This document shows, piece after piece, positions 33,800 through 39,717 of a DNA stretch of 64,000 nucleotides; within the stretch, counting starts at the first letter, position 1, and each line of letters opens with the position of its first letter. The notes beneath the pieces were generated by a model. That model saw only the letters and a program-made list of their open reading frames with translations, was not told the DNA's origin and did no database searches. The DNA is taken from the NCBI GenBank assembly GCA_050015675.1, contig JBEKAY010000013.1, positions 2,734 through 66,733 on the forward strand, in the 5' to 3' direction. The translations under genes and the position numbers were made by a program. The DNA is from Bacteroidota bacterium. Lineage in GTDB: Bacteria > Bacteroidota > Ignavibacteria > UBA10030.

Positions 33800-35047
33800 T
33801 TATACCCAACCGCGCAATTTACAAGCTTCCGCAACACGCGCTACGCCGACAACCATAGCCGCTAATCTTGGATGGACTTTCTTCTCTCGAATAGCTTCCT
33901 GAACTGTGTGATACGCTTTTCGCATCTTCTCGTCAAGCCGTTCATGTACAGTTGTTTCATCCCAGAAGAAAGAACTTTTATCTTGCACCATTTCAAAGTA
34001 GGATACGGTTACGCCGCCTGCACTGGCAAGAATATCAGGAATGACGTGAATGCCGCGTTTATGGAGAAAAAGATCAGCTTCTGGAGTCGTGGGACCGTTT
34101 GCAAGCTCGCACACAATCTTCGCTTTAACACGTTCCATATTGTCTTCATTGATGGAATTTTCAAGCGCCGCCGGATAGAGAATATCCACTTCGAGTTCGA
34201 GAACTAAATCCCGTGGAATGCTTCGAGTCCCTGGAAATCCGACAACAGATCCTGTTTTAAGTTTGTGTGTAACAAGTTCTTTCGGATTCATTCCATCCGG
34301 ATTCAAGATGCCGCCGCGTGAATCACAAACAGCAATCAATTTTCCCCCGCCCAAAAGTTCAGGATGCAGCAATGCTGTTCGTTGACCGGCATTTCCAAAA
34401 CCTTGAATCGCAAACGTCCCGGTCGCATCAACACCAAGAACCTTACAAGCTTCACGGACAGCAATAACACCTCCACGGGCGGTCGCATCACGACGGCCTT
34501 CTGTACCACCGATCTGTTGCGGCTTGTCTGTAAAAACACCGGGGTGATGAAATTGCATAAGAGTCTCATACTCATCCATCATCCAAGCCATTGTTTGCGG
34601 ATTTGTATAGACATCAGGAGCAGGTACGTCTTTATCTATACCAATGTATTGAACAACAGCACGAACGTATGCGCGAGATAAATTCTCTAACTCTCGCTCA
34701 GACATTTTACGCGGATTGCAGACCACTCCGCCTTTTGCACCACCGAGCGGGAGATCCAACACTGATGTTTTCCATGTCATCCATCCTGAAAGTGCCCGAA
34801 TCGAATCGCCTGTTTCATCCGGATGGAAACGGATACCGCCTTTCGCAGGCCCACGTGCAGAATTATATTGGATTCGATACCCATGGAATATATTGACTTC
34901 TCCATTATCCATACGGACCGGTATGGTAAATTTATATTCCCGCTGAGGCCACATAAGCAATTCAGTGGTCGCATGATCCAGATTGAGGATTTTAGCGGCT
35001 TCTGCCACCTGCTGTTGAAGTACATCGAATGAATTATACGAACCCAT
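33800..35047 (-). CDS. gdh: glutamate dehydrogenase (Glu/Leu/Phe/Val dehydrogenase family, about 415-aa type)
   Basis: Catalytic lysine region GPAKGGIRFHP and LPLGGAKGGV; Rossmann GFGNAG. Confidence 0.9.
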   Translation of the reverse strand: MGSYNSFDVLQQQVAEAAKILNLDHATTELLMWPQREYKFTIPVRMDNGEVNIFHGYRIQYNSARGPAKGGIRFHPDETGDSIRALSGWMTWKTSVLDLPLGGAKGGVVCNPRKMSERELENLSRAYVRAVVQYIGIDKDVPAPDVYTNPQTMAWMMDEYETLMQFHHPGVFTDKPQQIGGTEGRRDATARGGVIAVREACKVLGVDATGTFAIQGFGNAGQRTALLHPELLGGGKLIAVCDSRGGILNPDGMNPKELVTHKLKTGSVVGFPGTRSIPRDLVLELEVDILYPAALENSINEDNMERVKAKIVCELANGPTTPEADLFLHKRGIHVIPDILASAGGVTVSYFEMVQDKSSFFWDETTVHERLDEKMRKAYHTVQEAIREKKVHPRLAAMVVGVARVAEACKLRGWV

Positions 35048-35050
35048 TGT

Positions 35051-35242
35051 CTACTCCTTCTCTCGCTCTAAAGAATGATCGTCCATTTTATCCAACCCAT
35101 CCCGTCGATCCAGAATAATTCTGTACCAGCAGTTCTTACACATCAACGAGCGATCTACGCTCAACAGCACTTGCTGCCATGGACTTAGTTTTTCTCCGCA
35201 GTGAGGACATGCGTCATAAATTTTTATGCCAGCATTTTCCAC
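35051..35242 (-). CDS. zinc-ribbon small protein (63 aa)
   Basis: CPHC...CKNC four-cysteine pattern; wedged between the REC-PPDK_N gene and gdh with 1-3 nt spacing. Confidence 0.45.
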   Translation of the reverse strand: MENAGIKIYDACPHCGEKLSPWQQVLLSVDRSLMCKNCWYRIILDRRDGLDKMDDHSLEREKE

Positions 35243-35243
35243 G

Positions 35244-38200: not shown

Positions 38201-38246
38201 AATTAGAATCTAACGGACTAACGGCTTGATCAACTTTTTCTTCCAT
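35244..38246 (-). CDS. multidomain protein: receiver-like domains fused to a PEP/pyruvate-binding (PPDK_N, ATP-grasp) domain
   Basis: 1000 aa; N-terminal CheY-like segments; central/C-terminal PPDK_N-type signature IGGGSLGGKARGLGF and ...LLQMRPL...; no phospho-His swivel or TIM-barrel PEP-utilizer domain is evident. Confidence 0.6.
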   Translation of the reverse strand: MEEKVDQAVSPLDSNSVEHGFGNLFYGVQNPMRIRISNVLLVSSLYDLYLFEEDGRLYELSRGEYEGLNLSQSPELTCVSSGKEAMVLAKEERHFDLIITTLHIDDMQAIDFARLVKQSDLNIPVVLLMHDTRELKHFLLTHDTSVFDKIFIWQGDFRIIIAIIKFLEDRLNVEHDTQAVGVQSIIVIEDNVNYYSSFLPIIYTEILKQSQRLISEGIDLGHKFLRMRASPKILLCSTYEEAWTYYTRYKRFLLGIISDIDFPRNGKQDPHAGIDFVQAVRSEKPDVPILLFSNVRENKVSAENMGASFTLKDSPSLMHDLQQFMIYNFSFGDFVFRLPDGTEVGRANDMKSLEDMLRVVPGESIRYHADRNHFSSWLRARTEFWLAGKLLPRKVSDFPNVEALRKDLIISLHHYRNLCQRGIVANFSKDTFGSETTFARIGGGSLGGKARGLGFVDMLLNDYNVRTRFEHVKIYVPSAVVLGTDVFDQFLKENDLLKFAMECKDDREITKRFLLADKFPSEVIADLLSFLELARTPLAVRSSSMLEDSQYHPFAGVYETYMIPNAHADIHVRLNDLLKSIKRVYASTFYQSAKDYIRITSYRYEEEKMAVIVQNLVGKVHENRYYPDISGVAKSYNFYPLKPQKSSDGTAAVALGLGKWVVDGGNTVRFCPKYPNDIVQFYSVKETLNSSQWSFFSLTLDADPDFGEETYDVLVQQQGLEVAERDDVLKYVGSTYLPENDAISNGLGRKGTRVVTFAPILHNKFVPIAEIIELLLDMGVWGMGTPVEMEFAVNFDVPYPSGTEFALLQMRPLVVNRESEELVVEEIDHSKILCQSNQVLGHGLIDGIFDIVAVDYQLFDRAASQQVAAEIASFNAQLLRENKPYLLIGIGRWGSLDPWLGIPVTWEQISGARAIIETGFKDMSVTPSQGSHFFQNITSFMIGYFTVSEFQKQGFLDWGWLLSQPPLEKKRYTKLFRFDKCLIVKINGHQNKGVILKPEG

Positions 38247-38355
38247 AAGTCCATACCAGCTTCAATAAATGGCCGCCGCCTTCCGATCAAAACCCTGACA
38301 AGGTTCAGAATCTGGCGGCAGTCATTGTAATTTTAGTACAGATCAGTCCAGCGGG

Positions 38356-39717
38356 TTACACGATCCCTTGATCCATCATCGCATCAGCAACTTTTAAGAA
38401 ACCGCCGATGTTAGCACCATTGACGTAATTGCCAGGCGTACCAAACCGATCCGCCATATCAACACACGTCTTGTGGATACTCTTCATAATCTGATGCAAC
38501 CGACTGTCCACTTCTTCGCGTGGCCATGGCAAGCGCATGCTATTCTGGCTCATTTCTAAACCTGAGGTTGCCACGCCGCCAGCATTTGCTGCTTTACCGG
38601 GACCATAAAGAATTTTTGCATCAAGGAAAAGTTTCACGCCATCGAGCGTCGTTGGCATATTCGCGCCTTCCGCTACAGCATAGATACCGTTCTTCAGTAA
38701 GTTTTGCGCATCCTTACCGTTGACCTCGTTCTGCGTTGCGCTTGGGAACGCACAATCCGCTTTGTGATTCCACAATGGATTGTAGTCAAGTTTAGAATCG
38801 ACGGGCGTGTAGACTGCTTTCTTATATTTTTCCGTGTATTCCGAGATACGTCCACGACGAACATTTTTCAATTCCATAATGAACGCGAGTTTATTCTCGT
38901 CAATACCTTCTTCATCGTAAATATAACCATTTGAATCGGAAAGTGTTACTACTTTTCCGCCAAGTTGATTAATTTTTTCGACAGTATACTGCGCCACATT
39001 GCCGCTTCCGGAAACAAGACATTTTTTCCCTTCAAGCGTTTTTCCGCGTGTCGCAAGCATCTCGGCTGCAAAATAGACTGCCCCGTACCCGGTTGCTTCG
39101 GGACGAATGAGCGAGCCGCCCCAGTTAAGTCCTTTACCGGTAAGTACACCGGTGAATTCATTCCGTAATTTTTTATACTGACCGAAAAGATATCCGATCT
39201 CGCGTCCACCTACACCGATATCGCCGGCAGGAACATCTGTATCAGATCCAACATGACGGTACAATTCACTCATGAATGCCTGACAGAACCGCATAATTTT
39301 CAGATCGCTCTTTCCTTTTGGATCGAAGTCTGAACCGCCCTTCGCTCCACCCATCGGTAATGTTGTGAGACTGTTTTTGAAAACCTGCTCGAACGCAAGA
39401 AACTTTAAAATACCAACCGTGACCGAAGGATGGAATCGCAAACCGCCTTTGTAAGGGCCAATCGCACTGTTCATCTGAATACGGTAACCGCGGTTGATAT
39501 GTATTTCACCTTGATCATCTACCCAAGGAACACGAAATTGAATCAATCGTTCTGGTTCTATGATTCGTTCAAGAATTTTAGATGAGCGATATTCCGGATG
39601 ACGCTCCAGAACAAGAGATAATGACTCAGCTACCTCTTGCACTGCTTGATGAAACTCCGGCTCCGCAGGATTTTTTGCTTTTACCTCTGCAACGAGATCT
39701 TTCACGTAATGAGACAT
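38356..39717 (-). CDS. gdhA: NADP-specific glutamate dehydrogenase (GdhA-type, about 450 aa)
   Basis: MSHYVKDL... N-terminus; [11 protein letters not shown]; [18 protein letters not shown]; Rossmann [10 protein letters not shown]. Confidence 0.9.

Follow-up and report, generated by a model that had tools for sequence, protein, structure and literature searches.

Which reaction could be carried out by a protein that joins response-regulator modules to the nucleotide-binding domain of phosphoenolpyruvate (PEP) synthases, and that is encoded between two glutamate dehydrogenases (GDHs)? The question is raised by a locus of an Ignavibacteria-lineage bacterium, located in the window, i.e., the whole stretch of 64,000 nucleotides analysed here. 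Four genes on the minus strand form a cluster. GDH453 (38356..39717) encodes a GdhA-type (family I, NADP-specific-like) GDH of 453 aa and lies upstream of MEGA (35244..38246), whose product of 1000 aa comprises a pseudo-receiver, a receiver, a DUF5752-like linker, a PPDK_N ATP-grasp domain and a C-terminal domain (CTD). Downstream follow ZNR (35051..35242), a 63-aa Cys4 zinc-ribbon-like protein with a GTG start, and then GDH415 (33800..35047), a divergent ELFV glutamate dehydrogenase of 415 aa, putatively of the archaeal/GdhB-like class. The intergenic distances are 109 nt (GDH453–MEGA), 1 nt (MEGA–ZNR) and 3 nt (ZNR–GDH415), and the cluster is arranged exactly as the original prediction had described it. 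On the plus strand, convergent with GDH415, a gene pair (32331..33706) encodes a sensor-less HisKA_3 histidine kinase (32331..33035, 234 aa) and a LuxR-type response regulator (33032..33706, 224 aa), both assigned by Pfam.

Domain Organization of MEGA

MEGA begins with two receiver-like modules on the minus strand. REC1 (37713..38144, residues ~35–178) matches Pfam Response_reg at residues 75–129 with 31.2 bits against a cutoff of 30.2. When aligned by hhalign with the window's own canonical receiver, its T101 occupies the position of the acceptor aspartate, which is M, T, F or V and in no case D (0/117) among the 117 diverse members (33–56% identity) used for the analysis of residue conservation. 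REC1 is an aspartate-less pseudo-receiver, with the receiver fold and without the acceptor Asp. REC2 (37251..37709, residues ~180–332) carries the canonical signature of an acidic pair (E189/D190), acceptor Asp (D259), Ser/Thr (S293) and Lys (K312), which is kept in 100–113 of the 117 members (D259 in 106, S/T293 in 113, K312 in 109). D259, S293 and K312 align by hhalign with D54, S82 and K104 of the LuxR-type regulator in the window, and scanned alone REC2 gives a weak, sub-threshold Pfam receiver match (E 0.011, 16.3 bits). The presence of CheY-like receiver modules, previously read from the sequence, holds for both modules, but only the second has an acceptor Asp, the first having Thr or Met instead. 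By Foldseek, the tandem matches the tandem receivers of PleD-type proteins. The following linker (36936..37250, minus strand, residues ~333–437) reaches 24.3 bits with Pfam DUF5752 (cutoff 23) when scanned alone, and a faint DUF5752 annotation is also recorded for distant relatives of MEGA.

The PPDK_N-type ATP-grasp domain (35763..36935, minus strand, residues ~438–828) was recognized in the original prediction by its GGKARGLG motif (residues 447–454), an assignment now confirmed by a near-complete match to Pfam PF01326 (residues 445–828, E 1.6e-34, profile positions 3–324 of 328). It aligns with E. coli PpsA at an hhalign probability of 97%, and the top Foldseek match of MEGA is rifampin phosphotransferase (RPH; 5hv1, E 4.9e-8); the AF2 model of the full-length protein is of moderate confidence (pLDDT 68). 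K449, R451, the R541-S-S-S stretch, E547, D548, Q614, E790, Q809 and R811 are nearly invariant in the 117 members.

MEGA ends 170 residues past the ATP-grasp. This C-terminal part (CTD; 35247..35762, minus strand, residues ~829–1000, 170 aa) is a strongly conserved separate alpha/beta domain and not a featureless tail. Its motifs GRWG(S/T) (891–895), GIPV (901–904), E917 and PSQG(S/T)HFF (927–934, including H932) are near-invariant in the 117 diverse members. They are kept in 130/133 proteins with receivers (REC-type) and in 28/29 and 57/58 of the receiver-less paralogs of the 609 and 767 types, respectively; one paralog (L160) has Asp at the position of H932. An AF2 model of the isolated CTD reaches a pTM of 0.80, with low confidence in the motif loops. 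The domain remains unclassified: Pfam gave no match when the tail was scanned alone (E ≤ 10) or across 48 diverse tails, a sequence-profile search of the PDB gave none, and Foldseek against the PDB returned nothing below E 0.1. The swivel domain PF00391 and PF02896 were likewise not matched in MEGA, in its tail (E ≤ 10) or in the 48 diverse tails, nor do they occur in the precomputed annotations of the more than 200 homologs listed, and hhalign gives the CTD a probability below 1% against the swivel regions of PpsA and EI. The proposed lack of swivel and TIM-barrel domains is thus borne out by HMM, profile and fold searches, but has to be qualified by the presence of a conserved CTD with an invariant His. 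H932 may take over the role of the phospho-His; since none of the searches relates the CTD to the swivel domain, such a carrier function is suggested only by the conservation and position of this residue.

Genes Surrounding MEGA

Both GDHs contain the ELFV domains PF02812 and PF00208 (Pfam ELFV_dehydrog_N and ELFV_dehydrog). GDH453 scores 759.6 bits with NCBIfam PRK09414, thereby passing the NADP-GdhA equivalog cutoff of 536; GDH415 scores 534 bits with GdhA_Arch, under the cutoff of 750, and reaches no equivalog cutoff. The two had been regarded as non-homologous, but they share the ELFV family and 31% identity (E 2e-48), and are homologs instead.

ZNR has 633 homologs of 58–77 aa. Among 121 of these sequences, a core (residues 10–45, CPHCG..LSPWQQVLLSVDR...CKNCWYRI) is nearly invariant and the tail variable, with C12/C15 and C35/C38 kept in 98–100%. 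Matches to the zinc-ribbon models of Pfam and NCBIfam all lie below cutoff, and the distant and receiver-less cassettes of the MEGA family contain no detectable ZNR.

A pair homologous to the HisKA_3/LuxR genes occurs within the GDH island in 16 of 83 other Ignavibacteria-type loci, in four of them convergent downstream of GDH415 and in 12 co-directional upstream of GdhA; among those with the latter layout are the I. album MAG and one genome of the Melioribacteraceae. The adjacent two-component system noted earlier is therefore a recurrent feature with two arrangements, but not a constant one, and the pair is a candidate for the cognate two-component partner of MEGA.

Genomic Coupling to Glutamate Dehydrogenase

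The MEGA family is a very large, uncharacterised group of response-regulator-class enzymes, with about 8000 word-sharing matches and 4773 clusters (50% identity, E ≤ 1e-3). Synteny was assessed in 80 species-level loci of Ignavibacteria, and neighbours were counted in 72 of them. ZNR lies directly downstream of MEGA in 71, GDH415 follows ZNR in 70, and GdhA is located directly upstream of MEGA in 64. About 70 of the 72 species-level loci keep this gene order, and the arrangement is not due to chance. A second MEGA paralog was found in 35/62 loci, and of the complete second copies, 22/24 have their own GdhA paralog upstream; such pairwise duplication is typical of cognate protein partners.

Beyond the Ignavibacteria, distant REC-type members (33–42% identity) adjoin a GdhA-type GDH in five of nine informative contexts (L084, L086, L087, L091, L096), these GDHs being 58–73% identical to GDH453. 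In the Bacteroidales locus L086, only 12 nt separate the GDH from a downstream family member of 984 aa. Two loci (L096, L097) repeat, at 33% identity, a layout in which GDHs of two types surround two PPDK_N proteins; L096 also has a 415-type GDH (48% identity), and genes for an aminotransferase and a 2-hydroxyacid dehydrogenase are present in both cassettes. Another member (L095) follows a 2-oxoacid:ferredoxin oxidoreductase beta-like gene. The remaining four informative contexts (L085, L088/89, L090, L092) have no GDH within 6–7 kb.

The receiver-less 609-type and 767-type paralogs retain the ATP-grasp and CTD, which form a conserved two-domain core whose motifs are kept with three different N-termini. 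A GDH is present in the flanks of 34/45 of their metagenome loci of at least 9 kb, in this case of the 415 type (42–49% identity). Among the 767-type paralogs, 49/73 additionally have a fused minimal nucleotidyltransferase (NTase) with the Pol-beta fold, which serves covalent modification, including that of proteins in nitrogen control (GlnE, GlnD).

The conserved synteny on which the original prediction was made to depend thus extends from some 70/72 Ignavibacteria loci to relatives of 33–42% identity and to receiver-less paralogs. Four of the nine distant contexts lack an adjacent GDH, which might suggest that the proximity of GDH genes arose by accident in particular lineages and has no function; this has next to no probability. 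Adjacency is kept over 80 species-level genomes and in 34/45 long loci of receiver-less paralogs, it occurs at 33–42% identity in other lineages in both co-directional and divergent orientations, and as one to four of several thousand genes encode a GDH, the likelihood of finding one beside MEGA by chance would be well under 1% per locus. The synteny of the Ignavibacteria and of the receiver-less paralogs effectively refutes this explanation.

Comparison with Known Enzymes

PpsA and PPDK have a homologous nucleotide-binding domain and share the GGK, RSS..ED and E/Q metal-ligand motifs with MEGA, which differs from them in having neither the swivel domain nor the PEP/pyruvate TIM barrel. PEP/pyruvate chemistry therefore has no basis. 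Some NCBI records do name family members "phosphoenolpyruvate synthase", and PPDK_N is present, but a PEP synthase or PPDK that is ordinary except for its N-terminus is a very improbable identity for MEGA. The NCBIfam scores lie far below every equivalog cutoff, with 35.9 against 739.75 for PEP_synth TIGR01418, 35 against 598 for NF005057 and 56.7 against 883 for PRK06241.2-2. The CTD is unrelated to the swivel or TIM-barrel regions of PpsA by hhalign, and a real RPH/PpsA-like protein of a related genome (L077), whose swivel motif is of the textbook form, looks different. With these scores and in the absence of PF00391 and PF02896, this identity is effectively refuted; as neither a swivel nor a PEP-utilizer domain can be detected, MEGA is not a PEP synthase and such database names are misannotations.

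The RPH and PigC/RedH enzymes (the "PRK06241" group) are closer: they also place a PPDK_N-type ATP-grasp first and a C-terminal domain after it, they provide the best NCBIfam matches, and RPH is the best structural match (5hv1). However, their large substrate-binding domain and PF00391 swivel His domain are both absent from MEGA, of which only the ATP-grasp is matched; its CTD is unrelated, its N-terminus is formed by the receiver tandem, and its scores are 15–25 times below the family cutoffs. With the models of this group it reaches 29.4 against 999 for NF041857 and 52.1 against 1300 for PigC. The tandem itself resembles PleD-type proteins in that a canonical and an Asp-less receiver fold in succession precede an enzymatic output, whereas the order is reversed in MEGA (pseudo-receiver first) and the output is the ATP-grasp with the CTD rather than GGDEF. 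The combination of REC and PPDK has been recorded as an architecture in a census paper (PMC5847659), and aspartate-less receivers (ALRs) were found to be enriched with PPDK effector domains (PMC4395418); neither work gives a function for REC+PPDK or mentions a link to GDH. A literature search found no functional study of the MEGA family.

Proposed Function and Alternatives

The domains of MEGA, its conserved residues and a genomic coupling to GDH that extends over family and superfamily are direct observations, from which we infer that MEGA is a phosphorylation-gated, ATP-dependent enzyme dedicated to the neighbouring GDH(s). The full mechanism is given somewhat less than an even chance. D259 of REC2 would be phosphorylated by a histidine kinase, for which the recurrent sensor-less HisKA_3 kinase is a candidate. 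With REC1 as a PleD-like adaptor, phosphorylation could shift the oligomeric state and turn the core on. The ATP-grasp would then bind ATP and pass on a phosphoryl group, as happens in PpsA, PPDK, RPH and GWD, to a residue that acts as carrier or catalyst. The candidate acceptor is H932, which would lie in a mobile loop of the CTD, a domain joined to the ATP-grasp through a flexible linker. The phosphoryl group might be handed on to the neighbouring GDH(s), or the activated MEGA might act on them directly, so as to set the balance of the GdhA-type (assimilatory) and 415-type GDH at the glutamate/2-oxoglutarate/ammonium node. In Ignavibacteria, the tightly coupled ZNR could connect MEGA with GDH415, either as an adaptor or as a co-substrate. 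We counted in favour of a GDH-directed activity that the partner of MEGA is one enzyme and no multi-gene pathway, that MEGA has no separate RPH-like domain for small molecules, and that the HisKA_3/LuxR pair recurs in two arrangements. The core idea of the original prediction, a GDH/2-oxoglutarate control module unlike described systems, is sustained by the synteny and by the absence of a PEP-utilizer domain, while phosphotransfer and its target are predicted.

Adjacency of the genes is to be expected both if MEGA regulates GDH and if the two work on the same metabolic task, and does not tell these cases apart. To our knowledge, the substrates of every PPDK_N enzyme characterised so far are small molecules or glucans and not proteins. 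MEGA could accordingly be a small-molecule dikinase at the glutamate/2-oxoglutarate node, with GDH as a pathway neighbour and not a target; the core would phosphorylate or activate a GDH-linked metabolite or make an effector, and the receiver would merely tune the flux. We consider this less likely than the proposed mechanism. The nearest characterised relatives by NCBIfam and Foldseek (PpsA, RPH, PigC/RedH) all act on small molecules, the glycine-rich loop GPGRWGS after a beta-strand of the CTD seems to resemble a phosphate- or ligand-binding loop, and the aminotransferase, 2-hydroxyacid dehydrogenase and oxidoreductase genes of L095–L097 would fit. However, MEGA has no recognisable substrate-binding domain comparable to that of RPH, GDH and not a pathway is the sole constant neighbour across the superfamily, and one MEGA paralog for each GdhA paralog fits protein–protein specificity better. 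The minimal nucleotidyltransferase fusion suggests modification chemistry, even if such enzymes also modify small molecules.

Still less probable is a non-covalent regulator or energy sensor with ATP/AMP bound to its ATP-grasp. Under the control of receiver phosphorylation, it would attach to the GDH hexamer and switch it on or off allosterically, or else assemble or stabilise it, in each case without group transfer. Synteny and paralog pairing are equally compatible with such a role, and a receiver/pseudo-receiver tandem, as in the PleD-like match, is a known dimerisation switch. A precedent may be seen in Bacteroides thetaiotaomicron, where Baggio and Morrison (1996, J Bacteriol 178:7212) reportedly described a trans-acting factor downstream of gdhA; a downstream fragment of ~3 kb is said to be required for the activity of GdhA and not for transcription. 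A MEGA gene has this length, and the layout can be compared with the GDH and 984-aa member of L086. BT1971, a putative gdhA neighbour in the same organism, is a catalase. Against a non-covalent role, the catalytic set of the ATP-grasp, with the metal ligands E790 and Q809 among it, and the His motif of the CTD are almost invariant in the 117 members, which argues for catalysis over mere binding.

The adjacency to GDH genes, found across the superfamily in many bacteria, suggests that a central enzyme of nitrogen metabolism is controlled in an ATP-dependent manner not described so far. More tentatively than for MEGA itself, it is conceivable that the whole PPDK_N+CTD superfamily (REC-, 609- and 767/NTase-type) represents unrecognised, widespread ATP-dependent enzymes that covalently modify or switch GDHs, with the GRWG(S/T)...(S/T)HFF domain replacing the swivel as a novel catalytic domain or phospho-carrier. 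If so, it would be the GDH counterpart of the control of glutamine synthetase (GS) by GlnE and GlnD, tied to two-component signalling in Bacteroidota and Ignavibacteria. The likeness would be a functional analogy, namely a large multidomain enzyme dedicated to the post-translational control of one nitrogen-assimilation enzyme, and the Pol-beta nucleotidyltransferase domain of the 767-type paralogs belongs to the fold class of GlnE and GlnD. Sequence kinship does not go beyond this generic fold in the paralogs, however; MEGA itself has no NTase domain, and the putative target is GDH, not GS. Among the anti-phage and toxin–antitoxin models of PADLOC, MEGA, ZNR and the 609-aa paralog have no match, and the fusion protein of L108 has only a weak, generic NTase match of 20.9 bits.

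Organization and Conservation of the Gene Cluster

Four open reading frames (ORFs) follow one another on the minus strand of the window: a 453-aa GdhA-type glutamate dehydrogenase (GDH453, 38356..39717), the 1000-aa protein MEGA (35244..38246), a 63-aa Cys-rich, zinc-ribbon-like protein with a GTG start (ZNR, 35051..35242), and a second, 415-aa glutamate dehydrogenase (GDH415, 33800..35047). The gaps between them are 109, 1, and 3 nt, and genes, coordinates, and strand agree exactly with the original prediction. Its description of the two glutamate dehydrogenases (GDHs) as non-homologous was wrong, as both belong to the ELFV family and share 31% identity (E 2e-48). 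GDH453 scores above the equivalog cutoff of NCBIfam for NADP-specific GdhA; GDH415 represents another ELFV subfamily and best matches the archaeal-type GdhA model, below its cutoff. A promoter and terminator scan of 33500..40100 returned nothing exceeding shuffled expectation.

A scan of species-representative genomes gave at least 570 matching stretches, of which the best 80 loci were analysed. All of these are labelled Ignavibacteria-type, among them an Ignavibacterium album MAG and members of the Melioribacteraceae, and with 94% identity to the closest of them the window can be assigned to this group. The cultured species I. album and Melioribacter roseus probably encode a MEGA ortholog too. 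According to tblastn counts across these loci, synteny is conserved, as the proposal of a single unit had implied: ZNR lies directly 3′ of MEGA in 71/72 loci, GDH415 comes after it in 70/72, and a GdhA-type GDH is found directly 5′ of MEGA in 64/72. The four-gene arrangement is therefore real and far from chance. Farther upstream, 35 of 62 loci carry a second MEGA paralog (55–60% identity), preceded by its own GdhA paralog in 22 of the 24 cases in which it is complete, and a fourth, divergent GDH occurs at 16 loci. The GDH island of this lineage thus holds up to four GDHs and two MEGA paralogs, and the GdhA–MEGA unit is duplicated pairwise. At one locus (L002, 3329..6158), a frameshift or assembly error leaves the second MEGA paralog as two ORFs, of 69 and 875 aa. 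The 69-aa piece, situated in the gap between GDH and paralog, was considered as a second zinc ribbon and rejected; it is the split-off N-terminus and bears the N-terminal LLVSSLYDYYLFEEDGRLY motif of the family.

The ZNR family comprises 633 homologs with a nearly invariant core (CPHCG..LSPWQQVLLSVDR...CKNCWYRI) and a variable tail, and was not found in any distant or receiver-less cassette examined. Next to the module in the window stand a sensor-less HisKA_3 kinase and a LuxR-type regulator, a pair that reappears inside the island at 16 other loci, in two positions. Owing to this recurrence, the pair is a plausible candidate signalling partner of the GDH module.

Domain Anatomy of MEGA

Pfam assigns to MEGA a nearly full-length PPDK_N ATP-grasp domain (residues 445–828, E 1.6e-34) and a partial receiver (residues 75–129), with a marginal DUF5752 match in the linker (residues 333–437). 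Neither the PF00391 swivel nor the PF02896 TIM-barrel was detected, confirming the suspected lack of a PEP-utilizer domain. The NCBIfam models for PEP synthase, RPH, and PigC match the ATP-grasp only, with scores 15–25 times under their cutoffs. An AlphaFold2 model of moderate confidence (mean pLDDT 68) resolves five parts; in Foldseek, tandem receivers of the PleD type match the N-terminal part, and the rifampin phosphotransferase ATP-grasp matches the centre.

The family search yielded 4773 clusters at E ≤ 1e-3, of which 1210 remain at E ≤ 1e-30. From this search, 117 full-length representatives (33–56% identity) were aligned to assess conservation. In the first receiver, REC1, the acceptor position is occupied by M, T, F, or V, never by Asp, while the second, REC2, retains E189/D190, D259, S/T293, and K312. 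The nucleotide and metal ligands of the ATP-grasp are nearly invariant (GGK449xR451, R541-S-S-S, E547, D548, Q614, E790, Q809, and R811; n = 117). Alignment by hhalign with a canonical receiver encoded in the window itself confirmed the receiver assignments, placing T101 of REC1 at the acceptor Asp and D259, S293, and K312 of REC2 at the Asp, Ser, and Lys. Sequence and model together bear out this anatomy, with predicted catalytic residues intact and a canonical phospho-acceptor receiver adjoining a pseudo-receiver. Judged by its domains, MEGA unites two known kinds of protein, the ATP-grasp enzymes of PPDK_N type and the response regulators, here with a predicted enzymatic output.

Family members of 1132–1557 aa carry N-terminal extensions without recognisable domains, which therefore supply no fusion clue. 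Examples are P0285 and P0322 (≈1540 aa) and P0323 and P0381 (≈1146 aa), with extensions of about 180–590 aa lacking any Pfam domain. The gene for P0285 is divergent from a GDH gene, which is followed by a second family member of normal length (L086).

The C-terminal Domain

The 170 residues at the C-terminus of MEGA (CTD) rank among its most conserved regions. The motifs G891-R-W-G894, G901-I-P-V, E917, and P927-S-x-G-(S/T)-H932-F-F are each present in at least about 97% of diverse members. Modelled alone, the domain adopts a confident α/β fold (pTM 0.80), in which both motif loops are of low confidence and the His directly precedes a helix. The idea that the CTD is a diverged phospho-His swivel domain was unsupported by every method applied: Pfam gave no match for MEGA itself or for 48 diverse sequences, PDB sequence profiles gave none, Foldseek against the PDB returned nothing under E 0.1, and hhalign against the E. 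coli PpsA and Enzyme I sequences remained below 1% probability, compared with 97% for the MEGA ATP-grasp against PpsA. An Ignavibacteriaceae chromosome (L077, OY761615.1) provides an internal contrast to the CTD: less than 6 kb from its GDH island, it encodes a true RPH/PpsA-like protein in which the swivel motif has its textbook form. On the evidence of alignment and profile searches, the CTD is a predicted new, conserved domain with an invariant His.

Throughout the DNA fetched, the CTD motifs are kept in 130/133 proteins with receivers (REC-type) and in 28/29 and 57/58 proteins of two receiver-less classes (609-type and 767-type, respectively). In the 767-type paralog of L160, Asp replaces the otherwise invariant His (AYGTDFFQD versus G(S/T)HFF), a substitution that bears on whether this position carries a phosphoryl group.

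Distant and Receiver-less Relatives

Ten contexts of distant REC-type members (33–42% identity) from Bacteroidales and metagenome lineages were examined. A GDH gene directly adjoins the REC-type gene, co-directionally or divergently, in five of them (L084, L086, L087, L091, and L096), and all five include a GdhA-type enzyme 58–73% identical to GDH453. No GDH was found within 6–7 kb in L085, L088/89 (Muribaculaceae), L090, and L092, while the L095 contig is too short to judge. On the latter (250..1269), a TPP_enzyme_C protein resembling the β subunit of 2-oxoacid:ferredoxin oxidoreductases is encoded directly upstream of the REC-type member (35% identity).

At 33% identity, L096 echoes the logic of the window, with two GDH types around PPDK_N proteins: a 415-type GDH comes first, then the REC-type member and a receiver-less PPDK_N protein of 767 aa, and last a GdhA-type GDH. 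There (11374..14890) and in L097 (8509..11982), genes for a class V aminotransferase and a 2-hydroxyacid dehydrogenase come after the GdhA-type gene. These may be a SerC/SerA-like pair, which would add another glutamate/2-oxoglutarate-linked function. The 2-hydroxyacid dehydrogenase of the window (39968..40975), divergent from GDH453, looks unrelated to this one.

In the 767-aa protein of L096, the ATP-grasp is retained, as is the CTD with its two motifs. A metagenome scan seeded with it gave 79 loci, 44 of which have a GDH in their flanks (34 of the 45 loci of at least 9 kb). In the dominant cassette, a 415-type GDH is followed by an ATP-grasp–CTD protein of about 609 aa and then by the 767-type protein. 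C-terminal fusion to a minimal Pol-β nucleotidyltransferase of about 145 aa (FGSTKNATAGPxSDIDLL; Pfam NTP_transf_2, above cutoff) is seen in 49 of 73 767-type proteins, namely at L108 (5545..8715) and 48 other metagenome loci (L099–L174). A reading as a defence system was rejected, since no defence-system model matches. Thus, the whole ATP-grasp–CTD superfamily is genomically tied to GDH. The motifs shared by REC-, 609-, and 767-type proteins, together with the nucleotidyltransferase fusions, identify ATP-grasp plus CTD as a conserved, putatively catalytic core that takes different regulatory or accessory modules.

Proposed Function and Alternatives

The linkage of MEGA to one enzyme, GDH, is deep and repeated, and extends to duplication together with it. 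We tentatively favour a mechanism in which phosphorylation of D259 in REC2 would turn on an ATP-dependent reaction of the ATP-grasp–CTD core, with H932 as the likely carrier or catalytic residue. The neighbouring GDH(s) would be the target, and ZNR may act as a lineage-specific adaptor for the 415-type GDH. Taken jointly, these steps form a reading that is credible, though slightly short of an even chance. MEGA could instead be a dikinase for a small molecule in the same metabolic node, which we regard as possible but rather unlikely, or a non-covalent GDH regulator sensing ATP/AMP, which seems unlikely. An ordinary PEP synthase, with which MEGA has the ATP-grasp in common and no PEP-utilizer domain, is highly improbable, and a synteny without meaning, set against the repeated GDH linkage, is hardly conceivable. 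A small share of the probability is given to none of these readings. The original interpretation as a dedicated nitrogen/2-oxoglutarate control unit has outlived its own tests, on the PEP-utilizer domain and on synteny, but needs corrections such as the homology of the GDHs.

Relation to Previous Work and Significance

GDH occupies a point where carbon and nitrogen metabolism meet. To our knowledge, little is known about the post-translational control of bacterial GDH activity, or about how assimilatory and catabolic GDH paralogs are kept from running a futile cycle, beyond a few models (such as the GarA, GltC, and APRTh-type regulators). Baggio and Morrison reportedly found in 1996 that B. 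thetaiotaomicron requires trans-acting gene(s) located downstream of gdhA for GdhA activity, a requirement that the MEGA family might explain if its members modify GDH. A named Bacteroides homolog of MEGA was absent from the 120 matches listed, and BT1971, considered as a possible neighbour of gdhA in B. thetaiotaomicron, is a catalase.

The REC+PPDK architecture has already been listed in response-regulator censuses (Galperin et al., PMC5847659), and an enrichment of PPDK effector domains has been noted for aspartate-less receivers (Maule et al. 2015, PMC4395418); neither study gives these proteins a function. In the literature searched, there was no link between the family and GDH, no mention of DUF5752, and no study of the MEGA family. 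Both the linkage to GDH across the superfamily and the CTD, itself unclassified, appear to be undescribed. The database names of family members (“CheY-like chemotaxis protein”, “histidine kinase”, “phosphoenolpyruvate synthase”, and “PEP/pyruvate-binding domain-containing protein”) are uninformative or wrong. The family counts thousands of proteins of about 1000 residues and is widely found among Ignavibacteria and Bacteroidota, the gut Bacteroidales included; its receiver-less, sometimes nucleotidyltransferase-fused paralogs occur in many environments. Should MEGA prove to be a GDH-modifying enzyme, nitrogen control would gain a further level, a phosphotransfer domain of a new kind would be defined, and the widespread misannotations as “PEP synthase”, “histidine kinase”, or “CheY-like” would stand corrected.

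Other Features of the Window

A PAS histidine kinase (41000..43051, minus strand, 683 aa) and the 2-hydroxyacid dehydrogenase at 39968..40975 were excluded from the module, as the nearest relative, L004, is alone in conserving them. Beyond its HATPase domain, the kinase has a stretch of about 140 residues without Pfam match, possibly a degenerate receiver. The kinase gene overlaps the start of a 209-aa membrane-protein-like ORF (42991..43620), likewise without Pfam match and kept only in L004.

The 975-aa and 415-aa ORFs within 1041..5828, considered as a second module, proved to be type I restriction-modification genes. They belong to a complete system (1041..7896) of HsdR (1041..3968), HsdS (4581..5828), and HsdM (5815..7896), all on the minus strand, next to an AAA_14/DUF4143 ATPase (8150..9466); the GC content of the restriction-modification stretch, 0.36–0.40, is below that of the rest of the window. 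A sugar-nucleotide/polysaccharide biosynthesis cluster (25792..31769, minus strand) encodes a DegT aminotransferase, a GFO/IDH/MocA oxidoreductase, a UDP-glucose/GDP-mannose dehydrogenase, and a GT4 glycosyltransferase. An ORF of 218 aa (29995..30651) may be truncated or chimeric, as it matches only positions 181–259 of the 347-position UDP-GlcNAc 2-epimerase model. Between this cluster and the two-component pair flanking the GDH module lies a tRNA-Leu (CAG; 32112..32196, plus strand), the sole Rfam and ARAGORN match in the window.
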